64,000 bases of DNA from a virus (Duplodnaviria > Caudoviricetes): IMG/VR virus record IMGVR_UViG_3300014204_000122, positions 72,570-136,569 of that record, one strand, 5' to 3'. The notes below the pieces were generated by a model that saw nothing but the letters and a program-made list of their open reading frames with translations, ran no database searches and was not told where the DNA came from. Both the position numbers and the translations under genes were made by a program. The stretch's first letter is position 1. The number at the start of each line of letters is the position of its first letter. Shown here piece by piece: positions 1,927 to 56,279 of this stretch.

Positions 1927-3888
1927 TTAAATGTATTTGTAAATATCATCTTCAACAGAAATTCCCCATGTTTCATCAGTAATATCGTTTGATAATTCTA
2001 TATTATTATATTCTTCATAGAACCATAATGAATATATTTGATTTTTTTTATCTTGAAATATAAAACCATAATCATAAAATACCATATCGTTATATCCTTC
2101 TTTAATATAATCTAATTCTTCAATTATTTCATAATTTTCATTTGCTTTAATAAGATTATAATTTTTTTCTATAAATTTTATTTTCTCTGTACTATTTGTG
2201 TTAATTACTGTTGAAAAAGGGTAAAGATTTCTGATTGCAGAATTAGTATTAGTAGGACCATCATAATAAACGGTTTTAGAATCTTCATCAATTTTAACAT
2301 GATCTTCAATAAATTTATTTTTTATAATATAATTTGAATATTTATTTATAAGATATTCTTCAACTTTTTCAGATACAGTTGGAATGAGAATCCAAACTAT
2401 TTTTTTTTCTTCGTCAACTTTAATTATTTTTTCTAATCTTTCATCTAATTTAATAGGTTTAATATATTTTGAATATGCCATTTGGCTATTTTCCAAAATA
2501 GGTGTTTTATTAATATTTTTATTATAATAATCTTCTAAATTTTCTTCAGATTCAAAATATTTAATTTCACTTTTAATTGGATTAAAATTAACCATTTCTC
2601 TTCCTTTAATAATTATACCATCATATCCTAGTTTTAACATTTCAACTTCAATAGTAGTATCTTTACGAAAATCTCTTTTGTCTTTATATTTTTTTGCTAT
2701 ATTACCCCAAAACCAAATTTCCCAATCATTTAATGTATTAAAAGTTTTAGGGTTTTTAGGAATAGCACCTAATACAAAATGAATCTTACCAAAAGGTTTA
2801 GCCATTTGATGATTAGATAAACAAGCTGTATATAAACCATCTCCTAACATTGCTCCACCACCGTTAGGGACTCCTTTTTCTCTCATTCCTCTAACTGTAA
2901 CGTTTTTACGTTTCCATTTTAAATAATCAGAGTGAACATCTTCTAATAAATTTTCTTTTTTTAATAAAGATGTATGTTGTATAGTTTTTTCTCCATCTTT
3001 AGTAGGTTCAGAATAAACTATTTTTTCAGGATTAACTACATATGTTTGATCTTTAAACATATCAATATATTTTTGTCCCTTTCCAGATTTTAAATAAGCT
3101 ATTGTCGAATGTGGATTGTAATCAGGATAATCAGAATGATAAGGAAAAATATCTGTTAATTTTTTATTTATTGAATTTAAAATATTTTTTTTAGAATTAT
3201 GCTCTCTACATTCAAATTTTAAAACATCATATTCTTTATTCTCAAAACATGATATATTATATAATTCTAAAGCTGGTATTTTAAATTCCAAAATACAATC
3301 AATTATATCTTTATAACTTTCTATTTCTTTTGTTTTAAATCCATATAATAATGTTGTGTGTGGTTCAGTCTCTAAACCAAAAGTAGGTTTGTCATATATA
3401 TCTTCAGTATTTATTTTTTTTTGAATTTCTTTTAATTTATCAAAATTAAAAAACAACATAGCACATCCATATTCATATTTAGGCTTAGTTCTTTCTTCTA
3501 ATAATACTTTTTTATTAGTAAGTTTCTCTAACATTTCTACCATTGTTTTAACCTTTGATGGATTAAAACTTGATTTCACAGTGGTTGATACTAAATCTTT
3601 TCTAATATATCTTTGTATTTTATCATCTAGATAATTTTTATCTTGTTTAGAAATTTTCTTTTTAATTATTCTTTCTATAATGTCAATAAGAGTTCTAGAA
3701 TATGTTGAAGGTGAAATATTTCCTTTATTTACTCCAGTTCCTAATTTAATCATCTTGTTTTGATCTTTTTCATTTAAATTCCCAATAGTATTAGCTTCTG
3801 GTATAGTTCTTTTAACGGCAGCCATTGCTATATTTAATATAACAAATCCTTGGTTATCATCTGAGGGAATAGGATAATTAATATTCAT
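1927..3888 (-). CDS. Multidomain protein with Acb1/T4 57B-like 2H phosphoesterase, possible ART-like domain and internal tag copy
   Basis: YGCAML...EPHTTLLYG...YNPHSTIAY (two HxT/S motifs); RG...GDGLY...GYDGII..REMV segment; LEKLTNKKVLLEE before the 2H domain. Confidence 0.75.
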   Translation of the reverse strand: MNINYPIPSDDNQGFVILNIAMAAVKRTIPEANTIGNLNEKDQNKMIKLGTGVNKGNISPSTYSRTLIDIIERIIKKKISKQDKNYLDDKIQRYIRKDLVSTTVKSSFNPSKVKTMVEMLEKLTNKKVLLEERTKPKYEYGCAMLFFNFDKLKEIQKKINTEDIYDKPTFGLETEPHTTLLYGFKTKEIESYKDIIDCILEFKIPALELYNISCFENKEYDVLKFECREHNSKKNILNSINKKLTDIFPYHSDYPDYNPHSTIAYLKSGKGQKYIDMFKDQTYVVNPEKIVYSEPTKDGEKTIQHTSLLKKENLLEDVHSDYLKWKRKNVTVRGMREKGVPNGGGAMLGDGLYTACLSNHQMAKPFGKIHFVLGAIPKNPKTFNTLNDWEIWFWGNIAKKYKDKRDFRKDTTIEVEMLKLGYDGIIIKGREMVNFNPIKSEIKYFESEENLEDYYNKNINKTPILENSQMAYSKYIKPIKLDERLEKIIKVDEEKKIVWILIPTVSEKVEEYLINKYSNYIIKNKFIEDHVKIDEDSKTVYYDGPTNTNSAIRNLYPFSTVINTNSTEKIKFIEKNYNLIKANENYEIIEELDYIKEGYNDMVFYDYGFIFQDKKNQIYSLWFYEEYNNIELSNDITDETWGISVEDDIYKYI

Positions 3889-4461: not shown

Positions 4462-5121
4462 ATGAAAGAGATACAATTAGCCAAAATACTTGTAGATTAT
4501 TACGAAAACAAAGGATATGAATGTTATAAAGAAGTGAGTTCATCAGGTAGTGGTGGATCTAAAAGAGCTGATTGTTATTTTATAAAAAAAGAAAATGGAG
4601 AAATAATTGATTCTTTTTCAGTTGAAACTAAAATGACACTGGGATTAAATGTTATAGAACAAGCTTATAAGTGGAAACCTCAAGCAAAACGTGTATATGT
4701 GGGAGTTCCTCGATTGAAAAGAAAACCTGTAAAAGCAAGAAAGTTTGCAATGTTTGTTTGCAATAAATTAGGCATAGGTATTATTGAAATAGCAAAAGGA
4801 GATATTAAAATTATACAAGAGGTAGAAGATAATTTAAAATATAAAATGCCACCATTATATGAAGAACAAAAAAAATCTAAAGCAGGAAATGCAAAATCTC
4901 AATTTTTTACAAAATATAAAAAAACTATAGCTAATATAGATAAATTTATGAAAGACAAAAAAGAATATAGTTTAAAAGATTTATTAAATCAAATAGAACA
5001 TCATTATTCAAATAATCTTTCAGCACATGGATGTATAATAAAGTATATTAAAAAGGGAATTATAAAAAATTATACTACTAAAAGAGGAAATAAGTGTATA
5101 ATGTTAGTTAAAATTAAATAA
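4462..5121 (+). CDS. Putative PD-(D/E)XK nuclease (DUF2161/MmcB-like)
   Basis: EV...RAD...VETK...QA motif spacing, GIGII. Confidence 0.6.
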   Translation: MKEIQLAKILVDYYENKGYECYKEVSSSGSGGSKRADCYFIKKENGEIIDSFSVETKMTLGLNVIEQAYKWKPQAKRVYVGVPRLKRKPVKARKFAMFVCNKLGIGIIEIAKGDIKIIQEVEDNLKYKMPPLYEEQKKSKAGNAKSQFFTKYKKTIANIDKFMKDKKEYSLKDLLNQIEHHYSNNLSAHGCIIKYIKKGIIKNYTTKRGNKCIMLVKIK

Positions 5122-5204
5122 GTTCCCACGACAGGATTCAAACCCGCATTTTCAACATTCAATTACGTATACTTGATCCGTATTCAAGCTCGGTTACGTA
5201 GGAA
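5122..5204 (-). ncRNA. Non-canonical tRNA-like element (8-bp acceptor, T arm, no D stem, hairpin with ACG loop)
   Basis: TTCCTACG/CGTGGGAA acceptor, GCGGG-TTTGAAT-CCTGT T arm, CTTGA-ATACGGA-TCAAG hairpin. Confidence 0.55.
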
Positions 5205-5217
5205 TAAAAATAAAAAG

Positions 5218-5313
5218 TCTAGTGTGAGGGATTCGAACCCTCGGATAATACTACCTGTGTACCACCGCACGCTTCCAAGACGTGCATCTTAAACCTAACT
5301 CGACCAACACTAG
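5218..5313 (-). tRNA. tRNA-Pro(TGG) with long variable arm
   Basis: C1-G72, A73; CACGT-CTTGGAA-GCGTG anticodon arm; long variable region. Confidence 0.8.
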
Positions 5314-5323
5314 TTATAATTAG

Positions 5324-5395
5324 TAGCCCTAGATTGATTCGAACAATCATCAAGTCATTCGTAGTGACCCATTCTATCCGTTGAACTATAGAGCC
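5324..5395 (-). tRNA. tRNA-Arg(ACG)
   Basis: Cloverleaf; GGTCA-CTACGAA-TGACT. Confidence 0.92.
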
Positions 5396-5404
5396 TCAAA
5401 TTTG

Positions 5405-5489
5405 CTGATTAGGTACGACTCGAACGTACAAGCTCTTTACGAGCACTTGCTTCAAAGACAAGTGTGTTTACCAATTCCACCACTAATCA
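5405..5489 (-). tRNA. tRNA-Gln(TTG) with long variable arm
   Basis: U1-A72, G73; CTTGT-CTTTGAA-GCAAG; GCTC-GTAAA-GAGC variable arm; Leu-like D arm. Confidence 0.85.
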
Positions 5490-5495
5490 ATATTG

Positions 5496-5568
5496 TATCC
5501 ATAGATGGGTTTGAACCACCGACCGCCAAGGTATAAGCTTGGAACTCTGACCACTGAGTTATATGGAT
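5496..5568 (-). tRNA. tRNA-Ile(TAT)
   Basis: CCAAG-CTTATAC-CTTGG. Confidence 0.9.
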
Positions 5569-5591
5569 ATATTTCAATTAACTTAATCTAG

Positions 5592-5666
5592 TCGAGGTGG
5601 TGAGATTTGAACTCACGAACCGACGTTTCCAGGACGCCGTTGTATAACCATCTGCATAACACCTCG
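5592..5666 (-). tRNA. tRNA-Pro(TGG), atypical (C33, weak D arm)
   Basis: C1-G72, A73; GGCGT-CCTGGAA-ACGTC. Confidence 0.75.
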
Positions 5667-5679
5667 TTATATTTTTTTG

Positions 5680-5750
5680 TTGTCTTACAAGGATTCGAAC
5701 CTTGAATACCTGGATCAAAACCAGATGTGTTACCATTACACTATAAGACA
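5680..5750 (-). tRNA. tRNA-Gln(TTG)
   Basis: TCTGG-TTTTGAT-CCAGG; U1-A72. Confidence 0.92.
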
Positions 5751-5822
5751 ATATATTTTAAAATCTAATTCTATGTTTCTCTGTCTATCGATCCTTTAAA
5801 TTAGTAACGGTCTCCTGTATCG

Positions 5823-5898
5823 TCTAGGTAGTGAAATTTGAATTCACGTGCTCTGCATCCCAAATGCAGCGAGATAAACCTGACTCCTCTATACCTAG
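5823..5898 (-). tRNA. tRNA-Pro(TGG)
   Basis: CTGCA-TTTGGGA-TGCAG; C1-G72. Confidence 0.9.
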
Positions 5899-5921
5899 TT
5901 ATATATTTTTAAATTTTAAGC

Positions 5922-5958
5922 AAAAAAAAATCTCAATCAAATTACTGATTGAGATTTT
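5922..5958 (-). terminator. Attenuator terminator upstream of tRNA operon 1
   Basis: AAAATCTCAATCA-GTAATT-TGATTGAGA followed by T9 on the minus strand. Confidence 0.88.
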
Positions 5959-5990
5959 CTATTAAAATATGAAATATTAACGTAAAACTT

Positions 5991-6080
5991 TTAAATTTTA
6001 ATATTCAATTTTAAACATGACTCAATCAGGCTGCTTCTGCGCGGCTGTTGAGGTATTTGTATGTTTAAAATTGCGTTCAT
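5991..6080 (-). CDS. Attenuator leader peptide 1, MNAILNIQIPQQPRRSSLIESCLKLNIKI (Ile-AUA/Gln/Pro/Arg-CGN sensor)
   Basis: Run ATA CAA ATA CCT CAA CAG CCG CGC; contains CTGATTGAG complementary to the terminator 5' arm CTCAATCAG. Confidence 0.85.
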   Translation of the reverse strand: MNAILNIQIPQQPRRSSLIESCLKLNIKI

Positions 6081-6094
6081 TTTGTTTATTTTAT

Positions 6095-6193
6095 TTTTAA
6101 ATATTACTTTTTTATTTATTTATTATTAATATAAGAAATTATTTTTGTTTTATTTCTATTTTGATACCCTAAAGATATATTTTTTTATAATAC
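6095..6193 (-). promoter_or_regulatory. Promoter cassette of tRNA operon 1 (99-bp near-identical repeat of 9555-9653)
   Basis: 3 mismatches to 9555-9653; contains TATCTTTAG, TTCTTATATTAATAAT and TATTTAAA boxes also upstream of operon 3. Confidence 0.75.
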
Positions 6194-6197
6194 AAAC

Positions 6198-6611
6198 CTA
6201 ATATTTTGAATTATTTTTTAACACTATACCATTTTTATAAACTTCATACTCATAAAAACGAGGTAATCCATATTTTAGAGCTTCTGCTAAATCTGTCCAT
6301 TCTTCTTCAGAAACCATATCATCTGGATAAGAAAAATTACCTTTTAAATGAGCAGGTATAGGTCTTAAATTAACTAAAACTAATTCACCTTCACCACCTT
6401 TAACATCTATTGCTAATTCTTCTGTGCTCCAATCTGATTTAGTATCGATAATTTCTTCAACTCTATCACGAATTTCTTTTTGTGTATAAATTTTAGGTGT
6501 TGGAGGATCAGGAAACATATCTTCTTTCAAAATTATTTTTTTTCCTGAAATTCTTTGTAATTTTTCAGTAAGCAATTGTATCTCTAATTGTTTTTCCTTT
6601 TCTGATTTCAT
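6198..6611 (-). CDS. Tagged hypothetical protein (MKSEKEKQLE leader)
   Basis: N-terminal 30-aa tag, unique C-terminus. Confidence 0.85.
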   Translation of the reverse strand: MKSEKEKQLEIQLLTEKLQRISGKKIILKEDMFPDPPTPKIYTQKEIRDRVEEIIDTKSDWSTEELAIDVKGGEGELVLVNLRPIPAHLKGNFSYPDDMVSEEEWTDLAEALKYGLPRFYEYEVYKNGIVLKNNSKY

Positions 6612-6612
6612 T

Positions 6613-6999
6613 CTATTTTTCTTCTATATCTTCAATTTCTACATCACTATTTTCAAAATCTATAGGTTCTACACTTATTTGTGGTTGAGTTTCTTCTCCC
6701 TCTAATGCTTTATCAACACTGATAATTTCACAAGAAACTATGTTAGTGAATACTTTTAATCTTTTATCAATTGCATTTTTAAGTTCTTCTTCTGAAGGTT
6801 CAAGATTATTTGTAATTATAATTTTACCTTCAATAAGAGTAGGTTCAAACCCTTCAAATAAAACAGATACTTTAAATAAATAAGTAATATTGTTCCAATA
6901 ACTATTCATTTCTGTAAAAACTACTTTCTTGCCAGATATTCTTTGAATTTTTTCTGTAAGTAATTGTATCTCTAATTGTTTTTCTTTTTCTGTTTTCAT
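6613..6999 (-). CDS. Tagged hypothetical protein
   Basis: N-terminal tag MKTEKEKQLE...VVFTE. Confidence 0.85.
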   Translation of the reverse strand: MKTEKEKQLEIQLLTEKIQRISGKKVVFTEMNSYWNNITYLFKVSVLFEGFEPTLIEGKIIITNNLEPSEEELKNAIDKRLKVFTNIVSCEIISVDKALEGEETQPQISVEPIDFENSDVEIEDIEEK

Positions 7000-7011
7000 T
7001 ATTGTTTATAG

Positions 7012-7269
7012 TTATACAGTTATTTTATTCCAAAAATCATTTAATTTTTTATCTGCACCCACTGCTAATTGAATTATGTCTTTAGATATAGGTCCTCCTA
7101 TGATTTTAGCTGATTCTATAATGGCTTTTAATTTTTCTGCTACTATTAAAATATCTTTTATATTATTAGTGGCTTCGTTTTCTTTTAAAACTACTTTCTT
7201 GCCAGATATTCTTTGGATCTTTTCAGTAAGTAATTGAATTTCTAATTGTTTTTCTTTTTCTGTTTTCAT
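7012..7269 (-). CDS. Tagged hypothetical protein
   Basis: N-terminal tag. Confidence 0.85.
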   Translation of the reverse strand: MKTEKEKQLEIQLLTEKIQRISGKKVVLKENEATNNIKDILIVAEKLKAIIESAKIIGGPISKDIIQLAVGADKKLNDFWNKITV

Positions 7270-7275
7270 TATTAA

Positions 7276-7692
7276 TTAAATACTGATTGTTTTTACTTCT
7301 TGAATATTTAGTTTTCCTGGAACTACTATAAAAGTAACATTTTCACAAGTCCATTTATCATAATCATCGAATGATTCATGTTTGCACTCTTCAATAAGCT
7401 CTAAAGCATCTTCTGATTCTTTTTTATCTATAAGAGTTAAAAAATTAAGTAAGGCAATTTTTCTATTGATTCCTTTTACATAACTTATTTCTGAAACGTC
7501 TGCATTTCCTGAATTAGATTGTGAATAAACAGTAAATATTTTTTCTTCTTCTTGAGGTTCTCCTGGTTCCATAAGTTCTTCGATAATATCTTTGTCTTCA
7601 CTTTCTGTAAAAACCACTTTCTTGCCAGATATTCTTTGAATTTTTTCTGTAAGTAATTGTATCTCTAATTGTTTTTCTTTTTCTGATTTCAT
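7276..7692 (-). CDS. Tagged hypothetical protein
   Basis: N-terminal tag. Confidence 0.85.
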   Translation of the reverse strand: MKSEKEKQLEIQLLTEKIQRISGKKVVFTESEDKDIIEELMEPGEPQEEEKIFTVYSQSNSGNADVSEISYVKGINRKIALLNFLTLIDKKESEDALELIEECKHESFDDYDKWTCENVTFIVVPGKLNIQEVKTISI

Positions 7693-7727
7693 TTTATTTA
7701 TATTTTAATTATTTACTTTAAATATAA

Positions 7728-8351
7728 TTAATTTGGTTTTCCTACTAAAATTTTATAATGTTTTTCACCTGCAATGTCTCTTAAATACCAGCCTTCTTTT
7801 ATATTAGATCCTTTAGGATTCTCTCCAACCCATGTTACTTTCTTTCCTAATACTTGTTCTACTTCTTGTTGATTGTTTATAATAGGTACATTATATCTTT
7901 CTAGAACTTTCATTATTCTATTATCAACTTCACAATAAAAACCTTGATTCTTTACTTTATTTGCAGCTCTTTCAAAATAAGATATAATAGAAGCTCTTGC
8001 TCCATCGTGTCCTACTCCTACTAATTTAATACCGTGTTTAGTATTTTTTCCAAAATATAATACATCTATATCAGGATCTTGATCTATATCTACTACTTCT
8101 ACATAAGAAAAATCATCATTTGATAAAATATCATTTGTTGACTTTATATTACTATGACCTCCAATTTGAGAATATGCTATATTAATAAGTTCAAGAAATT
8201 CATCTACTAGTTCTGGGTGAGATTTTATATTGATTTTCTCCCACTCATGTTTTTTTAATCCTAATTTTGATGATTCTTTTTCTATAAGAATGACTTTGCT
8301 TTTAGAAATTTTTTCTAATTTTTCAATTAATAATTGTAAAATAGGTTTCAT
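7728..8351 (-). CDS. Hypothetical protein with degenerate tag
   Basis: Starts MKPILQLLIEKLEKISKSKVILIE. Confidence 0.8.
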   Translation of the reverse strand: MKPILQLLIEKLEKISKSKVILIEKESSKLGLKKHEWEKINIKSHPELVDEFLELINIAYSQIGGHSNIKSTNDILSNDDFSYVEVVDIDQDPDIDVLYFGKNTKHGIKLVGVGHDGARASIISYFERAANKVKNQGFYCEVDNRIMKVLERYNVPIINNQQEVEQVLGKKVTWVGENPKGSNIKEGWYLRDIAGEKHYKILVGKPN

Positions 8352-8416
8352 TTATAGCATTTTATTATAAATATAGGAAAGTAAAATATAAAAATTAAAT
8401 TTTATAATATTTTTTG

Positions 8417-8499
8417 TACTCTAGGTCAGACTCGAACTGACACGCTTGAGGGCGACGACGCTTAAAATCGTTGTGTACTACCAATTTCACCACTAGAGC
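8417..8499 (-). tRNA. tRNA-Leu(TAA)
   Basis: ACGAT-TTTAAGC-GTCGT; class II body. Confidence 0.88.
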
Positions 8500-8504
8500 A
8501 TTTG

Positions 8505-8586
8505 TGATCTAAGAGAGATTTGAACTCTCACTATTTACATAATTAGCTTCTTAAACTAACGTGTCTACCAATTCCACCATTAGACC
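8505..8586 (-). tRNA. tRNA-Leu(AAG)
   Basis: TTAGT-TTAAGAA-GCTAA; Leu-type D arm, A73. Confidence 0.8.
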
Positions 8587-8594
8587 ATATTTTG

Positions 8595-8684
8595 CGGAAG
8601 ATGAGGGGGTCGAACCCTCGTAACGGTTTTTAAGCGTCCTAATTGTTTAGCAAACAATCCTCTTTACCATTTGAGTAACCTTCC
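8595..8684 (-). tRNA. tRNA-Ser(GCT)
   Basis: ATTGT-TTGCTAA-ACAAT; G73; long variable arm. Confidence 0.92.
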
Positions 8685-8696
8685 ATTTTATTTTTG

Positions 8697-8771
8697 TAGA
8701 TTAGAAGGGAGTCGAACCCTCACTGAATAGTTTCTAAAACTATTGCCTCTTAACCATTGGGCTACTAATCC
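8697..8771 (-). tRNA. tRNA-Leu(TAG), short variable loop
   Basis: ATAGT-TTTAGAA-ACTAT. Confidence 0.87.
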
Positions 8772-8785
8772 ATTTATATTTTTTG

Positions 8786-8876
8786 TACTCCAGGTCGGAC
8801 TCGAACCGACAGTGTTTTCTCAATGAGTGTCACCGTTTAAAAGTGATGCGTTTCAACCAAGTTTCGCCACTGGAGC
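8786..8876 (-). tRNA. tRNA-Leu(TAA)
   Basis: TCACT-TTTAAAC-GGTGA. Confidence 0.9.
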
Positions 8877-8895
8877 ATATTTATTTTTTTATTTG

Positions 8896-8968
8896 GGTGA
8901 AAACGGGGCTCGAACCCTGTCCTAGATATTCACAGTATCTCATGCTAACCAATAACACTATTTTCACC
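8896..8968 (-). tRNA. tRNA-His(GTG)
   Basis: AGATA-CTGTGAA-TATCT; G-1:C73. Confidence 0.92.
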
Positions 8969-8977
8969 ATATATTTG

Positions 8978-9070
8978 CGGAAGAAGTAGGATTCGAACCC
9001 ACACACCCCTAAAGGCCCTCGGTTTTCAAGACCGCCGCCGCTACCCTGCAAGCTTTCGGCTTATTCTTCC
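8978..9070 (-). tRNA. tRNA-Ser(TGA), enlarged D loop
   Basis: GCGGT-CTTGAAA-ACCGA; G73. Confidence 0.88.
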
Positions 9071-9084
9071 ATTTTTTTATTTAG

Positions 9085-9174
9085 GGTGAAAGACGAGTCA
9101 CGATCTCGCATTAAGTTGTTACACTATTCCAGAACCACAATCTGGTCGGCATCCAATTACCGGCTACTAACACC
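9085..9174 (-). tRNA. tRNA-His(GTG), atypical (long variable region, mismatched acceptor)
   Basis: CCAGA-TTGTGGT-TCTGG; G-1:C73; GTGTTAG/CTTTCAC acceptor. Confidence 0.7.
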
Positions 9175-9262
9175 ATATATTTTTAAAATAATATTATAAG
9201 CCGTACACTTTTCACAGTCGCTATGGGTTTCAACCATTTAGTACTTATAATATTATTTAAAG

Positions 9263-9346
9263 CGGAAGAAGAGAGATTCGAACTCTCGAAGCTTTTACAC
9301 CCAGTTGTTTTCAAAACAATGTCCTCATGCCTACCGGATTTCTTCC
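9263..9346 (-). tRNA. tRNA-Ser(TGA)
   Basis: ATTGT-TTTGAAA-ACAAC; G73. Confidence 0.87.
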
Positions 9347-9362
9347 AAATTTATTTTTTTTA

Positions 9363-9380
9363 CAATTATTTCAATGAACT
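9363..9380 (-). promoter_or_regulatory. boxA-like antitermination element
   Basis: AGTTCATTGAAATAATTG between terminator and first tRNA; parallels 50360-50376. Confidence 0.5.
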
Positions 9381-9390
9381 ATATACAAAC

Positions 9391-9430
9391 AAAAAAAACC
9401 CTTGATCAATTTATTTAGATCAAGGGTTTT
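9391..9430 (-). terminator. Attenuator terminator upstream of tRNA operon 2
   Basis: AAAACCCTTGATC-loop-GATCAAGGG followed by T8. Confidence 0.88.
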
Positions 9431-9457
9431 TAATATTAACTTTTAAAATTATAGAAA

Positions 9458-9550
9458 TTATCTTTTCGTTAAATCATACCTTGATCCACATCTGCTACTT
9501 GATAACAGGTGTAAATGCGATAACAACGATATGATAACTATTTTTTTCAT
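9458..9550 (-). CDS. Attenuator leader peptide 2, MKKIVIISLLSHLHLLSSSRCGSRYDLTKR (Ser/Leu/His sensor)
   Basis: 12 consecutive Ser/Leu/His codons; GGATCAAGG pairs with the terminator 5' arm CCTTGATC. Confidence 0.88.
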   Translation of the reverse strand: MKKIVIISLLSHLHLLSSSRCGSRYDLTKR

Positions 9551-9554
9551 TTTC

Positions 9555-9653
9555 TTTTAAATATTACTTTTTTATTTATTTATTATTAATATAAGAAATT
9601 ATTTTTGTTTTATTTCTATTTTAATGCTCTAAAGATATATTTTTTTATAATAC
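9555..9653 (-). promoter_or_regulatory. Promoter cassette of tRNA operon 2 (repeat of 6095-6193)
   Basis: 99-bp direct repeat, 3 mismatches. Confidence 0.75.
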
Positions 9654-9678
9654 TAACCAAATTATTTTAAATTATTTT

Positions 9679-10323
9679 TTATTTCATTACATATAGTTGG
9701 TATTTTCCTTTAGGAAATTCTTTAATTTCTTCAGGTGTATTAGCTGTTGCTAAAACCTTAGTTAATGTTCCAACATAGTAAGGATTATAAATTTTTGCTT
9801 TTCTATTATAAAGAGATGGAAGTTTAGTTGTACCATTTCCATCATCAAATAAATATAAATCTCTATTATCTTTTAAATATTCTTCTGTTTTTCCTGAACC
9901 TGATAAAATAATTGTTTTATCATTTCCCACAAGTTTAAGTAAAAAATATGCTGTCTTATTTTGCACAAACTCATTATTTAATGGATTTTGCGTATCAATT
10001 TTACTATCTGAATTTAAACAAGCTATTTTTATTCCTTTCTTTTCTTCTTCTAATATAATACTTTTATTAGATAATGTTGAAAATGCACTTTCATTTAGCA
10101 CTTCAAAAACCAATATACCGTTACCACCAAATTTTGAATTATTTCCTACTAATTGTCCCTCTTCATCAAATCCTAAATGAGACCAACCATCTTCTTCTAA
10201 TTCTTTTTTAAATTCAGGATCTAATTCAACCTCTTCTTTTAAAACTACCTTCTTACCAGATATTCTTTGAATTTTTTCAGTAAGCAATTGTATTTCTAGT
10301 TGTTTTTCTTTTTCTGATTTCAT
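9679..10323 (-). CDS. Tagged hypothetical protein
   Basis: N-terminal tag; internal IILEE. Confidence 0.85.
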   Translation of the reverse strand: MKSEKEKQLEIQLLTEKIQRISGKKVVLKEEVELDPEFKKELEEDGWSHLGFDEEGQLVGNNSKFGGNGILVFEVLNESAFSTLSNKSIILEEEKKGIKIACLNSDSKIDTQNPLNNEFVQNKTAYFLLKLVGNDKTIILSGSGKTEEYLKDNRDLYLFDDGNGTTKLPSLYNRKAKIYNPYYVGTLTKVLATANTPEEIKEFPKGKYQLYVMK

Positions 10324-10327
10324 TATT

Positions 10328-10897
10328 TTATATTTTATTTATTATTAAGTTTTCAGGAATATCAACTATATATTCTCCTGATGTTAAAGGGTCCAAAAAT
10401 AAAAGTCCTCTTGGAGTACTTAAAACTAATTCTTTTCTTTTAGTTTGCGATGGATTTGAAATAAACCCTAAAACTTTTCCTACTTCAAAACTATTATAAC
10501 CATTATATCCTATATATTGGTTTTGTTTAAGTAACCACAAACCTCCTGTTTTATCTAAATTTTTAATATGATCTTTAATACTATTATTAGATGTAAATTC
10601 TTCCTCAAAACTATCACCCATATCAGGATGTACAATTAAAGGATTTTTAACTAAAGGTAATTTAACTTTATAATCAGGATATATTTTTTTAAAATATTCT
10701 AATACTTCAATTTTAATAGGAGTATTTTTTAAATTAATTATTTTATTTTCTTCATTAATATTATCAATAAAATTTTTTATTCGTTCTTCTATTTTAACAG
10801 GTTTGGCATGTTTAGAGTAGTAAACATAATCATCTTCCAAAATAACCTTTTTATTAACAAGGTTTTCTAATTTTTCTATTAATATATTTATGTTCAT
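10328..10897 (-). CDS. Hypothetical protein with degenerate tag and YSKxxKPxKxxER module
   Basis: MNINILIEKLENLVNKKVILEDDYVYYSKHAKPVKIEERI. Confidence 0.8.
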   Translation of the reverse strand: MNINILIEKLENLVNKKVILEDDYVYYSKHAKPVKIEERIKNFIDNINEENKIINLKNTPIKIEVLEYFKKIYPDYKVKLPLVKNPLIVHPDMGDSFEEEFTSNNSIKDHIKNLDKTGGLWLLKQNQYIGYNGYNSFEVGKVLGFISNPSQTKRKELVLSTPRGLLFLDPLTSGEYIVDIPENLIINKI

Positions 10898-13820: not shown

Positions 13821-14513
13821 TTATATTTTTTTAAATTCTATCATAGCTTTATAAAGGTTTTCTAAATCAGAATCAGAAAAAGATAAAGTATCAATTTCAT
13901 GATTATGTAATATTTCAACCATTTTGTCAATTTTTTCATCACTTATACTTTCCCAAATAGAGGAATCATAATCTGATGTAGTTCCATCTTCAAACTTTAA
14001 TTTAATTGTGTTATCGTCAACTTTTTGTATAAATTTTCCTGTTTGACCCTGTTTATTAGCTGGATCAGTAGTTAAATTTCTAGGAACTGTTAGAGATTCT
14101 CCTATTTCGTGATAATCAAAAATGTTTTCTTTTAATACTGTTAAACCACTATTTAGTGATTCTTCAAATACCTCTCCCTCAGTAGCATCCTTTAAAAATT
14201 TAATAATTTTTTCTTCAGGTGATAATTTATCAGGTGTTTCACCCATAGCAATATCGTATTTGTCAATTAATTCAGCTTTTTCTTCATCGCTGTTATTTTC
14301 ATTTTCACAAAATTTAATTACTTTATTAAAAAAAATTCTATCATCTTGAAAATTTCCTTTAATTTCATAATTTTTTAAATCCTGAAAAGTGGAATTATTA
14401 TTTGATGATTCTTTTAATATGTCGATTGATAAAACCACTTTCTTACCAGATATTCTTTGGATTTTTTCTGTAAGTAATTGTATTTCTAATTGTTTTTCTT
14501 TTTCTGATTTCAT
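13821..14513 (-). CDS. Tagged hypothetical protein
   Basis: N-terminal tag; internal VLKE. Confidence 0.85.
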   Translation of the reverse strand: MKSEKEKQLEIQLLTEKIQRISGKKVVLSIDILKESSNNNSTFQDLKNYEIKGNFQDDRIFFNKVIKFCENENNSDEEKAELIDKYDIAMGETPDKLSPEEKIIKFLKDATEGEVFEESLNSGLTVLKENIFDYHEIGESLTVPRNLTTDPANKQGQTGKFIQKVDDNTIKLKFEDGTTSDYDSSIWESISDEKIDKMVEILHNHEIDTLSFSDSDLENLYKAMIEFKKI

Positions 14514-14566
14514 TATTAATTAATTTATTTTAAATATTAAATTTTACTTTAAATTATTAAAATAAA

Positions 14567-48527: not shown

Positions 48528-49994
48528 ATGAAATCAGAAAAAGAAAAACAATTGGAAATACAACTACTTACTGAAAAAATTCAAAATATATCTGGAAAAA
48601 AGGTTATTTTCAAAGAAGAGTTTAATATAGAAGAGGAAGACGATTATTATTTAATAACCTCTTTAGAAGATGAAATAGAAACTGAAGCTTTTATAGATAA
48701 TTCAAAATATATTCAAAATAAATTTCCAAATGAAAAAGTTTTAAAAATTGATTGTGTTTATAATAATGATTTTTTTAAAAAATTTATAGGGTTTTTAAAA
48801 AAGAATAATATTAAATATAATATTAGAAAGGCAAGATTAGATAATTTTTGTAGAATCAATATAAATGTAAAAGATTTAAAATCAACAAACATTTTAAAAG
48901 AAAACGAAGAGAAAACATATAAAATATCAAAAACATATAACGATAAAACTAAAGTTATTGAAGATACTTTAGAAGGATTAATCAAATATTTTAGTTATAC
49001 TTTAGAATCAGGAAAAAGTCATAATAGTTCAATAGATAAAAGACCTAAAACAATTAATAGTCTTATAAGTAATTTAAGAAAAGCTTTTGATGAATTAGAA
49101 GGAGGTTTTTCTAGAACAAGTATTAGGTTAATTAAAGAAAATGTTGAAGTATTAAAAGAAACTATGTCTGCTATCCCTCCTGTTAAAAGTAAAACATCTG
49201 ATTTAGAGAATTTAAGAGCTGCAATTATAGCAGAATATGATGCTATTAATTTATATGATCAAATGGCTAATAATACAAAAAATAGTAAAATTAAAGAAGT
49301 TTTGTTAGATATAGCTAAAGAAGAAAAAACTCATGTAGGTGAATTAGAAGCACTTTTAAAAGACTTTGACAAACAACATGCAGAAGAAGTCGTTTCAGGA
49401 GAAAAAGAGGTTAAAAAAGCTTTAAAAGAAGAAAAAACAACAGTTTTAAAAGAAGCTATTAATCCTAGCAGTTGGAATATGACTAATGTGGCAAATAAAG
49501 TAGAAAGTTATGCAAATGAAAAAAATATACCTTTTGCTAAATTTAAAATTGAAAGAAAACCTTATGGGTATGGAGCTACTAGAACTACAGCTAAATTAAA
49601 AATAGGTTCAAATATAATTCTTATGAAAGTAGATAAAGTACCTGGAATGGGCAATAACGCAAATGACCTTGAGGTATATATGATAGATCCACAAGATGAA
49701 TCTAAAGGTATAAAAATCAGCAACTGGTGTTATTTATCAGATATTCCAAAATTTTTAGATAAATGGTTTGAATCATCTCAAGTTAGTTCTGATATTAAAA
49801 CAATGTCTAAAGAAGAGGTTGAAAAATTAAAATCAGATTTAAAAAAGGCAAGAATTGAAAATAATGAAGAAATAAGTGATGATCAAGCTTTTGATATAGC
49901 AGAAAATATTATAAATGAAAATCCGGGTTTAAAGGAATATTTAACTAGTATAGGAATTAAAGATATACAAGGCTATATAGCTAATTGGATATAA
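48528..49994 (+). CDS. Tagged multidomain protein containing a ferritin-like domain
   Basis: N-terminal tag; LRAAIIAEYDAINLYDQ...DIAKEEKTHVGEL; domains separated by (L/I)KE. Confidence 0.8.
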   Translation: MKSEKEKQLEIQLLTEKIQNISGKKVIFKEEFNIEEEDDYYLITSLEDEIETEAFIDNSKYIQNKFPNEKVLKIDCVYNNDFFKKFIGFLKKNNIKYNIRKARLDNFCRININVKDLKSTNILKENEEKTYKISKTYNDKTKVIEDTLEGLIKYFSYTLESGKSHNSSIDKRPKTINSLISNLRKAFDELEGGFSRTSIRLIKENVEVLKETMSAIPPVKSKTSDLENLRAAIIAEYDAINLYDQMANNTKNSKIKEVLLDIAKEEKTHVGELEALLKDFDKQHAEEVVSGEKEVKKALKEEKTTVLKEAINPSSWNMTNVANKVESYANEKNIPFAKFKIERKPYGYGATRTTAKLKIGSNIILMKVDKVPGMGNNANDLEVYMIDPQDESKGIKISNWCYLSDIPKFLDKWFESSQVSSDIKTMSKEEVEKLKSDLKKARIENNEEISDDQAFDIAENIINENPGLKEYLTSIGIKDIQGYIANWI

Positions 49995-50359: not shown

Positions 50360-50376
50360 AGTTCTTTGACATATTG
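50360..50376 (+). promoter_or_regulatory. boxA-like antitermination element
   Basis: AGTTCTTTGACATATTG resembles rrn leader boxA. Confidence 0.6.
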
Positions 50377-50388
50377 GTATAAAAAAAT

Positions 50389-51766: not shown

Positions 51767-51858
51767 GCGTTTGTTCGCTTAGCCCGGTCGAAAGCACCAC
51801 TCTTTTAAAGTGGATAGTTATTATAACTACATCGTAGGTTCAAATCCTACCAGACGTA
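51767..51858 (+). tRNA. tRNA-Lys(TTT) with long variable arm
   Basis: CCACT-CTTTTAA-AGTGG; TAGTTA-TTA-TAACTA arm. Confidence 0.85.
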
Positions 51859-51869
51859 CTTAATTATAT

Positions 51870-54813: not shown

Positions 54814-55128
54814 TTAATATTTTATATTTAAAAATTTTGCCACAGTATCAAATTGTTTATAACTCATCCAATCAATCCACAAAATCCAATTATATTTCTC
54901 GCTAGGTTTTGTTAAAGGTATAATTTTTTTGCCATTACTTAAAAAATCAATATTGTTTTCTAATTCTTCTTTAGTAATACCATTCATGAAAATTCGATCT
55001 TCTTGAAAATCAAAATCTATTTTTTGCTGATTTATATTTTCCCTCAAAATTACTTTCTTACCAGAAATTCTTTCTATTTTTTCGGTAAGTAATTGTATCT
55101 CTAATTGTTTTTCTTTTTCTGTTTTCAT
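54814..55128 (-). CDS. Tagged hypothetical protein
   Basis: N-terminal tag. Confidence 0.85.
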   Translation of the reverse strand: MKTEKEKQLEIQLLTEKIERISGKKVILRENINQQKIDFDFQEDRIFMNGITKEELENNIDFLSNGKKIIPLTKPSEKYNWILWIDWMSYKQFDTVAKFLNIKY

Positions 55129-55143
55129 TATTTTTTAAATTTT

Positions 55144-55983
55144 TTATTTAACATTAGAAGATCCGACACGTATAAATTTTCCAACATTATTAGCATCTTT
55201 TGTTTTTAGAACTATAGTTGTTTTTTCATCACTTTCTAGTTTTGTAATTGTATATTTAGAGGGATATCCGTTATTAGATTTTTCTATAACTTGATATTTT
55301 TCTTTAGTATCTTTATTTGTAAAAAGATGAACAGCTTTATAACTCCAAGATCCCACATTACGTGTTGTATGACTATCTTCTTGTGTTAAAACAAATCCAG
55401 CTTTTTTAAATTCATATTTTAAATTCTCCCACTTGTCTTCACCAGCAATTCCAGTAAACATTTCTTCTTCTTTTAAAATTACTTTTTGATTAGAAATTTT
55501 TTGAAGTTTTTCTATAAGCAGTTTTAATTTTTTAATTGTATTTTCATCAAATACATATCCTAATTCTAGTTCTTTATAACCATATGCCTGTTGTGATATA
55601 TCTTGAAGAGTAGAGAGTAAATTTTTAAGAGAAAAATCCTCTATATCATCTAATTTATAAGACCAATTTTTATCTTTACGCAATAAAGAAAATGTATTTT
55701 TAGTAACATTATATTCTATAATAAATTTTTCAGAACCAAATATTAATTTAATTATATCGTTTTGTTTATTAATAGATGTAATTTTTAACTTACTTGATAA
55801 TCCCGGAACTTCATACTCATCGTTATTTTTTAAATCATTTAACCAAGATTCTAATTCATCTTGAGCTTCTAATAAACGAGGACTACTTAAAACTTTTGTA
55901 GGCAACCATTCTTTTAATAAAATTTTATTAGACAATAATTGTAATTTTTCTTTAAGTAATTTTAATTCTTGTTTTTTGTTCAT
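55144..55983 (-). CDS. Hypothetical protein with two degenerate tag copies
   Basis: MNKKQELKLLKEKLQLLSNKILLKE...KLLIEKLQKISNQKVILKEE; ATG 55983 preferred. Confidence 0.8.
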   Translation of the reverse strand: MNKKQELKLLKEKLQLLSNKILLKEWLPTKVLSSPRLLEAQDELESWLNDLKNNDEYEVPGLSSKLKITSINKQNDIIKLIFGSEKFIIEYNVTKNTFSLLRKDKNWSYKLDDIEDFSLKNLLSTLQDISQQAYGYKELELGYVFDENTIKKLKLLIEKLQKISNQKVILKEEEMFTGIAGEDKWENLKYEFKKAGFVLTQEDSHTTRNVGSWSYKAVHLFTNKDTKEKYQVIEKSNNGYPSKYTITKLESDEKTTIVLKTKDANNVGKFIRVGSSNVK

Positions 55984-55999
55984 TCTTAAAATAGATATT

Positions 56000-56242
56000 T
56001 TACTTATAAGGATTAATTTCTTTTTCATCTACAAATAAATGTCTTTCACCTTGATATTTAAACAATAGTTTTTTAATATCATTAACAATAGAGTTTTTTA
56101 TAAAACCCTCACCATCTATATGTATATTAACTATTCCGAAAAATTCTTCACGTTCTTTTAAAACTACTTTCTTTCCAGATATTTTTTGAATTTTCTCTGT
56201 AAGCAATTGTATTTCTAATTGTTTTTCTTTTTCTGATTTCAT
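56000..56242 (-). CDS. Tagged hypothetical protein
   Basis: N-terminal tag. Confidence 0.8.
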   Translation of the reverse strand: MKSEKEKQLEIQLLTEKIQKISGKKVVLKEREEFFGIVNIHIDGEGFIKNSIVNDIKKLLFKYQGERHLFVDEKEINPYK

Positions 56243-56279
56243 TTATTATACTATTTATACAATTAAATATAAAAAAGAA

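Follow-up and report, generated by a model that had tools for sequence, protein, structure and literature searches.

Multivalent leader-peptide attenuators are known from the enterobacteria, where they control the ilvGMEDA (Ile/Val/Leu) and thr (Thr/Ile) operons, alongside the leaders trpL, hisL, leuL and pheL. In Escherichia coli, the pheM leader attenuates the pheST operon, which encodes phenylalanyl-tRNA synthetase.

The locus described here, which precedes a phage tRNA array, resembles the ilv and thr attenuators in having a short leader ORF with a cluster of regulatory codons, the alternative pairings 1:2, 2:3 and 3:4, and a terminator located before the regulated genes. One leader would likewise sense several amino acids, under control predicted to be kinetic, and a terminator more stable than the antiterminator is a further common feature. 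The target differs: the ilv and thr attenuators regulate biosynthetic enzymes, whereas the phage unit would regulate tRNAs, whose genes yield products that decode the control codons themselves. It also differs in belonging to a phage-encoded set, with one unit per array, and in using codons that sample isoacceptors, including rare G/C-ending ones. With pheM-pheST it shares leader-peptide attenuation of the translation apparatus and not of a biosynthetic pathway, although pheM regulates a synthetase, is concerned with a single amino acid and belongs to a cellular genome. T-box riboswitches, which control aminoacyl-tRNA synthetase and amino-acid genes in Gram-positive bacteria, also use a terminator and antiterminator to read the state of a specific tRNA; they bind uncharged tRNA via a specifier codon and need no translation, whereas the conserved feature of the phage unit is its leader ORF. 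The mechanism proposed below is of the classical trp/his/ilv type, and what is new is the target (phage tRNA arrays) and the roster-like leader.

In full-text literature searches, no case of tRNA genes governed by leader-peptide attenuation came to light. The nearest published logic found, in which spare tRNAs are produced as needed, belongs to Anabaena sp. PCC 7120: its tRNA L-array (trn operon) is supernumerary, normally silent and induced upon impaired elongation; it is controlled by a repressor, TrcR, acting on direct repeats over the -10 box, and no attenuation or leader peptide is mentioned (PMC8421152, PMC10272220). Unlike that of the phage unit, control of the L-array is neither codon-specific nor phage-borne.

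The phage genome and its tRNA arrays

All coordinates refer to the window, the 64,000-nt stretch of DNA that was analysed (positions 72,570 to 136,569 of IMGVR_UViG_3300014204_000122). The virus record comprises 136,569 bp at 26% GC and encodes a T4-type portal protein (gp20) and a major capsid protein (gp23); judged by the capsid protein, the nearest cultured relative is Flavobacterium phage immuto, at 37% identity. An SD-like motif is present in only 5 of the 102 long ORFs, and starts are A-rich, with 48-75% A at positions -20 to -1. The lack of Shine-Dalgarno sequences, the A-rich starts and the TAnnTTTG-like promoter boxes described below together suggest a Bacteroidota host.

Default ARAGORN identifies 30 tRNA genes genome-wide, all within three arrays. 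Array 2 occupies 8416..9346 on the minus strand and, at a relaxed ARAGORN threshold, comprises nine tRNA or tRNA-like genes:

9346-9262, minus strand: Ser-UGA, the first gene of the array
9173-9084, minus strand: His-GUG, aberrant, with a long extra arm and acceptor mismatches
9057-8977, minus strand: Ser-UGA
8967-8895, minus strand: His-GUG
8876-8785, minus strand: Leu-UAA, overlooked by ARAGORN at default settings but confirmed with Rfam (47.9 bits)
8771-8696, minus strand: Leu-UAG, 76 nt, without a long variable arm
8684-8594, minus strand: Ser-GCU
8586-8504, minus strand: Leu-AAG
8499-8416, minus strand: Leu-UAA

Three of the array-2 genes were found only at the relaxed threshold; these escape Rfam's tRNA model, one of them giving only a weak tRNA-Sec-like match, and two members of the array appear defective or atypical. 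Several over-long tRNAs also occur elsewhere in the window, among them a Pro tRNA of 97 nt and a Lys tRNA of 93 nt; the atypical sites outside array 2 are 5217-5313 (minus strand) and 51767-51859 (plus strand).

The leader ORF and its control codons

Upstream of array 2 lies a short ORF that contains an unusual run of codons:

9550..9458, minus strand: leader ORF of array 2, 30 codons followed by TAA, encoding MKKIVIISLLSHLHLLSSSRCGSRYDLTKR
9529..9494, minus strand: control run SLLSHLHLLSSS, ORF codons 8-19, twelve consecutive Ser, Leu or His codons

The ORF begins with ATG, preceded by A-rich sequence and no Shine-Dalgarno sequence, as is the case for 97 of the 102 long phage ORFs. The control codons are TCG TTG TTA TCG CAT TTA CAC CTG TTA TCA AGT AGC, nine of them distinct, and SLLSHLHLLSSS is the sole run of at least 12 Ser/Leu/His residues in the six frames of the whole 136,569-bp genome. 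The combined frequency of Ser, Leu and His in the phage's genes is 0.168, the twelfth power of which is 5e-10; genome-wide, 2.3e-4 array-readable runs of at least 12 codons are expected, and one is observed.

Under strict wobble rules, all twelve control codons can be decoded by array-2 tRNAs, and five of the six anticodon species in the array are sampled by the run. The missing species is Leu-AAG, which reads no control codon because CUU and CUC are absent. A preliminary description of the locus had reported twelve Ser/Leu/His codons covering the two boxes each of Ser and Leu as well as both His codons, ahead of an operon restricted to these three amino acids; codons 8-19 are exactly those listed there, and all nine downstream genes are for Ser, Leu or His; its claim that the codons mirror the tRNA set stands for Ser-UGA/GCU, Leu-UAA/UAG and His-GUG and fails for Leu-AAG. 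Its remark that the run uses otherwise uncommon GC-ending codons is also correct: in the long ORFs of the phage, G or C ends 9.5% of the codons for Ser, Leu and His, compared with 6 of 12 in the run (P = 4e-4). TCG, which appears twice in the run, makes up 2.2% of Ser codons in phage genes, AGC 3.3% of Ser codons and CTG 0.7% of Leu codons. This usage is consistent with deliberate isoacceptor sampling, and may equally reflect selection for G/C that stabilises hairpins in a genome of 26% GC, the two readings not being separable. If isoacceptors are sampled, the use of rare codons that U34 tRNAs read by wobble (UCG, CUG and UUG) would heighten sensitivity to tRNA concentration.

Alternative RNA structures and ribosome position

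Four elements of predicted RNA structure are found between the start of the leader ORF and the first tRNA:

9456..9539, minus strand: structure 1:2 (anti-antiterminator), an interrupted hairpin of about -21 kcal/mol
9479..9487, minus strand: region 2, GGAUCAAGG, a near-copy of the terminator's 3' arm
9417..9425, minus strand: region 3, CCUUGAUCU, within the terminator's 5' arm
9391..9431, minus strand: intrinsic terminator 3:4, a 14-bp stem (AAAAACCCUUGAUC / GAUCAAGGGUUUUU) with a 10-nt loop and U8, -18.5 kcal/mol

The control codons form the 5' arm and apex of the 1:2 hairpin, in which they pair with UGUGGAUCAAGGUA through helices 9516-9510:9490-9484 and 9522-9519:9480-9477. Region 2 may instead partner region 3, in an antiterminator of 9 pairs (GGAUCAAGG:CCUUGAUCU) with a duplex energy of -11.2 to -11.8 kcal/mol, and this 2:3 pairing is exclusive of the terminator. 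Both the control-codon hairpin and the alternative pairing with the terminator arm (9487-9479 with 9425-9417) had been anticipated in the preliminary description, and both are recovered here. The terminator stem starts 26 nt past the leader stop codon, and the first tRNA starts at 9346.

The free leader RNA is predicted to fold as 1:2 plus 3:4, at -42.7 kcal/mol (z = -5.4 against shuffled sequences). Structures 1:2 and 2:3 are isoenergetic (-21.2 and -21.4 kcal/mol), and in folds of the nascent transcript 1:2 is complete ahead of the synthesis of region 3. When a ribosome mask was applied to the full transcript at equilibrium, the probability of the terminator was 1.0 at every ribosome position, and this uninformative model was replaced by a truncated, co-transcriptional version in which a 28-nt footprint is placed on a transcript cut before the terminator's 3' arm. 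Since the full-length RNA always forms the terminator at equilibrium, the switch would work only kinetically, as in trp. In untranslated RNA cut at the same point, 2:3 is favoured at 74%, and the 'off' default would therefore depend on 1:2 forming first.

In the truncated model, 2:3 forms for A-site positions up to the AGU at 9499 and is blocked from 9496 to 9466, while the core of 1:2 is opened only from an A-site position of about 9526 onwards. The effective stalling window is thus about ORF codons 9-18 and is contained in the run (codons 8-19). At either of the final two control codons (AGU and AGC), the ribosome lies partly over region 2.

A choice between terminator and antiterminator is also the core of T-box and protein-mediated attenuators, and the same structures could in principle belong to an RNA-only or factor-binding riboregulator (T-box-like, or a protein-dependent antiterminator) to which the ORF is irrelevant. 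However, an Rfam search of 4500-10500 returned no Thr, Leu, Trp or His leader family and no T-box at E <= 1, no Rfam family that would suit such a regulator was detected at that threshold, and a specifier-loop architecture is absent. In addition, the diverged leaders considered below preserve the reading frame, the ATG with its A-rich second codon and the amino-acid classes, and not the nucleotide sequence, which makes a regulator of this kind exceedingly unlikely. The phage unit would work like the classical amino-acid leaders without membership of their Rfam families.

The putative promoter block and the post-terminator element

Two further elements flank the leader and terminator of array 2:

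9541..9679, minus strand: putative promoter / 5'-leader block, common to all three tRNA arrays
9363..9379, minus strand: conserved element GTTCATTGAAATAATTG, after the array-2 terminator and before the first tRNA

The block at 9541..9679 (array 2) and its counterpart at 6081-6219 (array 1) belong to repeat family D13 and share 88% identity; the blocks of all three arrays were aligned. About 140 nt of this sequence precede the ATG of each array's leader and no other copy exists in the genome; unlike this upstream block, the leaders and terminators of the three arrays are unrelated in sequence. The block holds TATCTTTAG at 9637..9629, which resembles the Bacteroidota -7 box TAnnTTTG, and none of the six other TATCTTTAG sites in the genome is associated with the block. 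The unique run of twelve codons is framed by a promoter block common to the arrays on one side and a strong terminator on the other.

The second element, GTTCWTTGAMATAWTKG, is found just past the terminators of array 2 (9363-9379, minus strand) and array 3 (50361-50377, plus strand), giving two matches in the window where 0.02 are expected. It is also found in other phage loci (L031, at 3780-3796; L049; L050; and L002, at about 7955-7972), and in two relatives it lies 3' of the first Tyr tRNA. The element is reminiscent of an rrn boxA (GTTCTTTGAAAA). It could load an antitermination complex in a boxA-like manner, or could be an internal promoter; GTTCWTTGAMATA is a candidate boxA for NusB/S10 binding or a candidate promoter.

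An internal promoter for the array, whether at this element (9379-9363) or at TAAATTTG, which fits TAnnTTTG at 9353-9346 and abuts the first tRNA, is the main structural caveat to reading the locus as an attenuator. A Bacteroidota-type promoter at 9353-9346 was judged unlikely, given that transcription would have to begin within the tRNA and that the motif is conserved neither in array 3 nor in L049.

These same two sequences bear on the reading of the ORF as a real small hydrophobic or secreted peptide, with the hairpin as its ordinary terminator and the array transcribed from its own downstream promoter. The N-terminus, MKKIVIISLL..., does resemble a signal sequence and is followed by a Cys at position 21, and both TAAATTTG and the conserved element lie where such a promoter might be sought. 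However, transcription initiated 5-7 nt beyond TAAATTTG would begin within the tRNA, and there is no counterpart of the motif at that place in array 3 or L049; the Cys has an Arg at -1 and just nine residues after it; the leaders of arrays 1 and 3 and of 18 other units are not signal-like, yet the layout and the match to the array are common to them; and sequences unrelated to this one also carry a copy of the terminator's 3' arm inside the ORF. Taken together, these observations make a functional peptide very unlikely. A lipoprotein or signal-peptide reading of MKKIVIISLL...C was ruled out separately, on the basis of the Arg at -1, the length of 30 amino acids and the dissimilarity of the other leaders.

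Arrays 1 and 3 and related phages

The layout of leader, terminator and array seen at array 2 recurs at arrays 1 and 3, which gives the genome three instances of it. Before array 1 (Pro, Gln, Ile-UAU, Arg-ACG) stand a leader with IQIPQQPRR and a 16-bp terminator; before array 3, which covers 15 kinds of amino acid, stands a leader, MKKWYTYRTIMTAFNKGVEDCGV..., that uses those 15 kinds. The match extends to the level of codons: the array-1 leader uses ATA, in keeping with Ile-UAU, and CGC, in keeping with Arg-ACG, and the array-3 leader uses ATT with Ile-GAU and AGA with Arg-UCU. For Tyr, the genome has its tRNA in array 3 and its codons in leader 3.

Related units were sought in other phages, with two (G001 and G005) reached via the capsid protein and two (G006/L031 and L049) via a 20-nt tRNA-Ser signature. 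In G001 (IMGVR_UViG_3300031521_000075; 83% capsid identity), an array with Ser-GCU has leaders with AGT/AGC, and two full leader-terminator units stand in tandem before one tRNA array (L002, 7490-7920; MKNWYTYKTIKTFAISFAGNRVSNDCGMLGIRI, then a 53-aa leader), an arrangement that looks like a two-stage gate. In G005 (IMGVR_UViG_3300020036_011304; 61% identity in the capsid protein), the leader PITIVEDIIAVDEP precedes Pro, Glu, Asp, Pro, Ala, Ile and Val tRNAs, and the leader QQSSQSQQ precedes Gln, Gln and Ser-GCU tRNAs. At another G005 locus (L027, 10985-11225), the leader MIKRDNISLSQLLLSLKTSVQVVICS is of the Ser/Leu/Gln type and comes with a terminator and an antiterminator, and all that follows is a decayed tRNA-like sequence whose acceptor stem is broken; this attenuator appears to have outlived its cargo.

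The two units identified by the tRNA-Ser signature are relatives of the array-2 attenuator itself. In G006/L031, the run LSLHSSLSYLLSYH precedes three Tyr tRNAs, Ser-UGA, two His tRNAs, Ser-GCU, Leu-UAA, Leu-UAG and Leu-CAA; in L049, the run LHSSSYLYLLSYL precedes a Tyr-like tRNA, Ser-UGA, His and Ser-GCU. In both, Tyr tRNAs in the array go with Tyr codons in the leader, and both leaders also employ TCG, CTG, TTG and AGY.

Other searches delimit the distribution of the design. A blastn search of the locus against 50,697 phage records gave tRNA-sized matches only, and a scan of IMG/VR for the promoter motif returned only the two array-3 relatives already known via the capsid protein, along with 14 other matches without tRNAs. 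The flanking 207-aa protein has no relatives in IMG/VR. Flavobacterium phage immuto has 3-4 tRNAs and no recognisable leader or terminator, and the design is absent from four other phage contigs that carry the same tRNA-Ser signature, indicating that it is lineage-restricted.

To compare leaders with arrays, a composition-blind search was conducted, requiring that a tRNA and a terminator be no more than 250 nt apart and that an ORF stop 15-45 nt ahead of this terminator. It yielded 21 distinct leader-terminator-array units. When the best 9-codon window of each leader was scored against all arrays, its own array ranked first in 10 of the 21 units and third or better in 16; the summed score (trace) for own-array matches has z = 8.8 relative to permuted pairings, and none of 200,000 permutations reaches it. 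The terminator 5' arm is best complemented by its own leader in 8 of 10 units, the array-2 terminator arm among them, and again the total is reached by 0 of 200,000 permutations. Spacing is conserved as well, with a gap of 5-8 nt between run and region 2 in six units, and 25-30 nt between stop codon and terminator in 9 of 9.

These statistics bear most directly on the possibility that the array-2 leader is a fortuitous ORF in AT-rich intergenic DNA and that the neighbouring terminator does no more than insulate the gene upstream from the tRNA array. Short ORFs are indeed common at 26% GC, with 65 ORFs of at least 20 amino acids in 6 kb. Nevertheless, almost no credence can be given to coincidence when runs of this kind are so rarely expected in a genome, when the design is found three times here and in 21 distinct units elsewhere with neither the codon fit nor the antiterminator fit matched by permutation, and when the terminator is preceded by a promoter block that is specific to the arrays. 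More generally, chance, a small peptide and a riboregulator all fit poorly with the observed recurrence and covariation.

Many units are also found in a separate lineage of about 32-37% GC, comprising G007 (IMGVR_UViG_3300012147_000007; L045, L044 and L042) and metagenome loci L047-L063. In this lineage, the leader RWSRWSSSS precedes five Ser tRNAs, Cys, Arg and Trp; SSSSSRSSR precedes Arg, Ser and Ser; HKHFSKSSKWF precedes Lys, His, Phe and Trp; and NLNMNLNNTLNMVVNTLCIR precedes Asn, Ile, Arg, Thr, Cys, Met, Val, Tyr and Leu.

Proposed mechanism and significance

A ribosome-mediated leader-peptide transcription attenuator probably gates the Ser/Leu/His tRNA array of this phage. At the level of sequence, this interpretation, which is that of the preliminary description, is supported: the locus has a short ORF, a cluster of cognate codons, a terminator, the antiterminator 2:3 and a 1:2 structure with fitting footprint geometry, so that all testable features are present, and the window in which a ribosome would release the array coincides with the codon run. 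Arrays 1 and 3 share the layout, and leader content tracks tRNA content in other phages. What the sequences show directly is the ORF, a codon run that matches the array, three alternative pairings with their geometry, and covariation across phages; that the leader is translated, how the switch behaves kinetically, that the polymerase reads through and what signal is sensed are inferred, as follows.

Transcription would begin in the block common to the three arrays, and a ribosome would translate the 30-codon leader, assuming that transcription and translation are coupled in the presumed Bacteroidota host. If Ser, Leu and His codons are decoded rapidly, or if the leader is not translated, region 2 would be masked by the ribosome or held in 1:2; with region 2 unavailable, the 14-bp terminator would form and transcription would halt at U8, before the tRNAs. 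A ribosome stalled in the run would instead cover the 5' arm of 1:2 and leave region 2 free to capture the emerging 5' arm of the terminator, in which case no terminator would form and the polymerase would enter the nine tRNA genes. Because the products of the array are tRNAs that decode the control codons, the feedback would be negative, and the circuit would act as a self-limiting homeostat, one per array. The tRNAs would be made on demand when the host supply falls short, whether through host shut-off, codon mismatch or anticodon nucleases.

The signal might alternatively be amino-acid starvation, or low charging, of Ser, Leu and His, as in a true amino-acid attenuator, which would serve to increase the dosage of tRNA genes in a starved cell. 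In its anatomy the unit is indistinguishable from the attenuators of amino-acid operons, and the switch reads ribosome speed, which is set by charged tRNA whatever the cause. Extra uncharged tRNA, however, cannot relieve starvation, so that the feedback loop would stay open, and the leaders track the tRNA roster at the level of codon and anticodon (ATA and ATT, CGC and AGA) and across phages, which fits sensing of tRNA supply. A device dedicated to amino acids is for these reasons unlikely, although the two signals are not mutually exclusive.

Beyond this single locus, it is plausible, and on balance slightly favoured, that several uncultured aquatic phage lineages run their tRNA arrays as codon-resolved, self-correcting circuits in which roster-like leaders poll the encoded isoacceptors, preferentially via slow wobble codons, so that depletion of particular tRNAs, including their cleavage by host anticodon-nuclease defences, is sensed and repaired as needed. 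If this is the case, the attenuators would constitute a built-in sensor for counter-defence against anticodon nucleases. The role of phage tRNAs is debated, with codon compensation, host shut-off and escape from tRNA-cleaving defences as the candidates, and their expression is usually assumed to be constitutive; under attenuation they would be synthesised as required, the ribosome acting as the sensor and the product completing the loop. This would carry attenuation beyond amino-acid metabolism to the decoding machinery. The leaders would name the tRNAs that a phage treats as limiting, which is a direct experimental handle, and they offer compact, modular and codon-specific sensors of tRNA availability for use as reporters. 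Their recurrence in many contigs points to a family of such units and not to a curiosity.

Other features of the genome

Several other features of the window are worth recording. Adjoining array 1 is a gene (1927-3888, minus strand) for a 653-aa protein with a weak 2'-5' RNA ligase-like domain, which may have a bearing on tRNA repair. The gene at 48528-49994 on the plus strand, immediately upstream of array 3, encodes a 488-aa protein with a rubrerythrin / encapsulated-ferritin-like domain. Finally, one N-terminal module, MKSEKEKQLEIQLLTEKIQRISGKKVV, is found in near-identical form in at least ten genes, where it is joined to C-terminal parts that are unrelated; these genes include those at 6198-7693, 9679-10324, 14379-14514 and 54994-56243 of the window, among others, and correspond to repeat families D1-D8.
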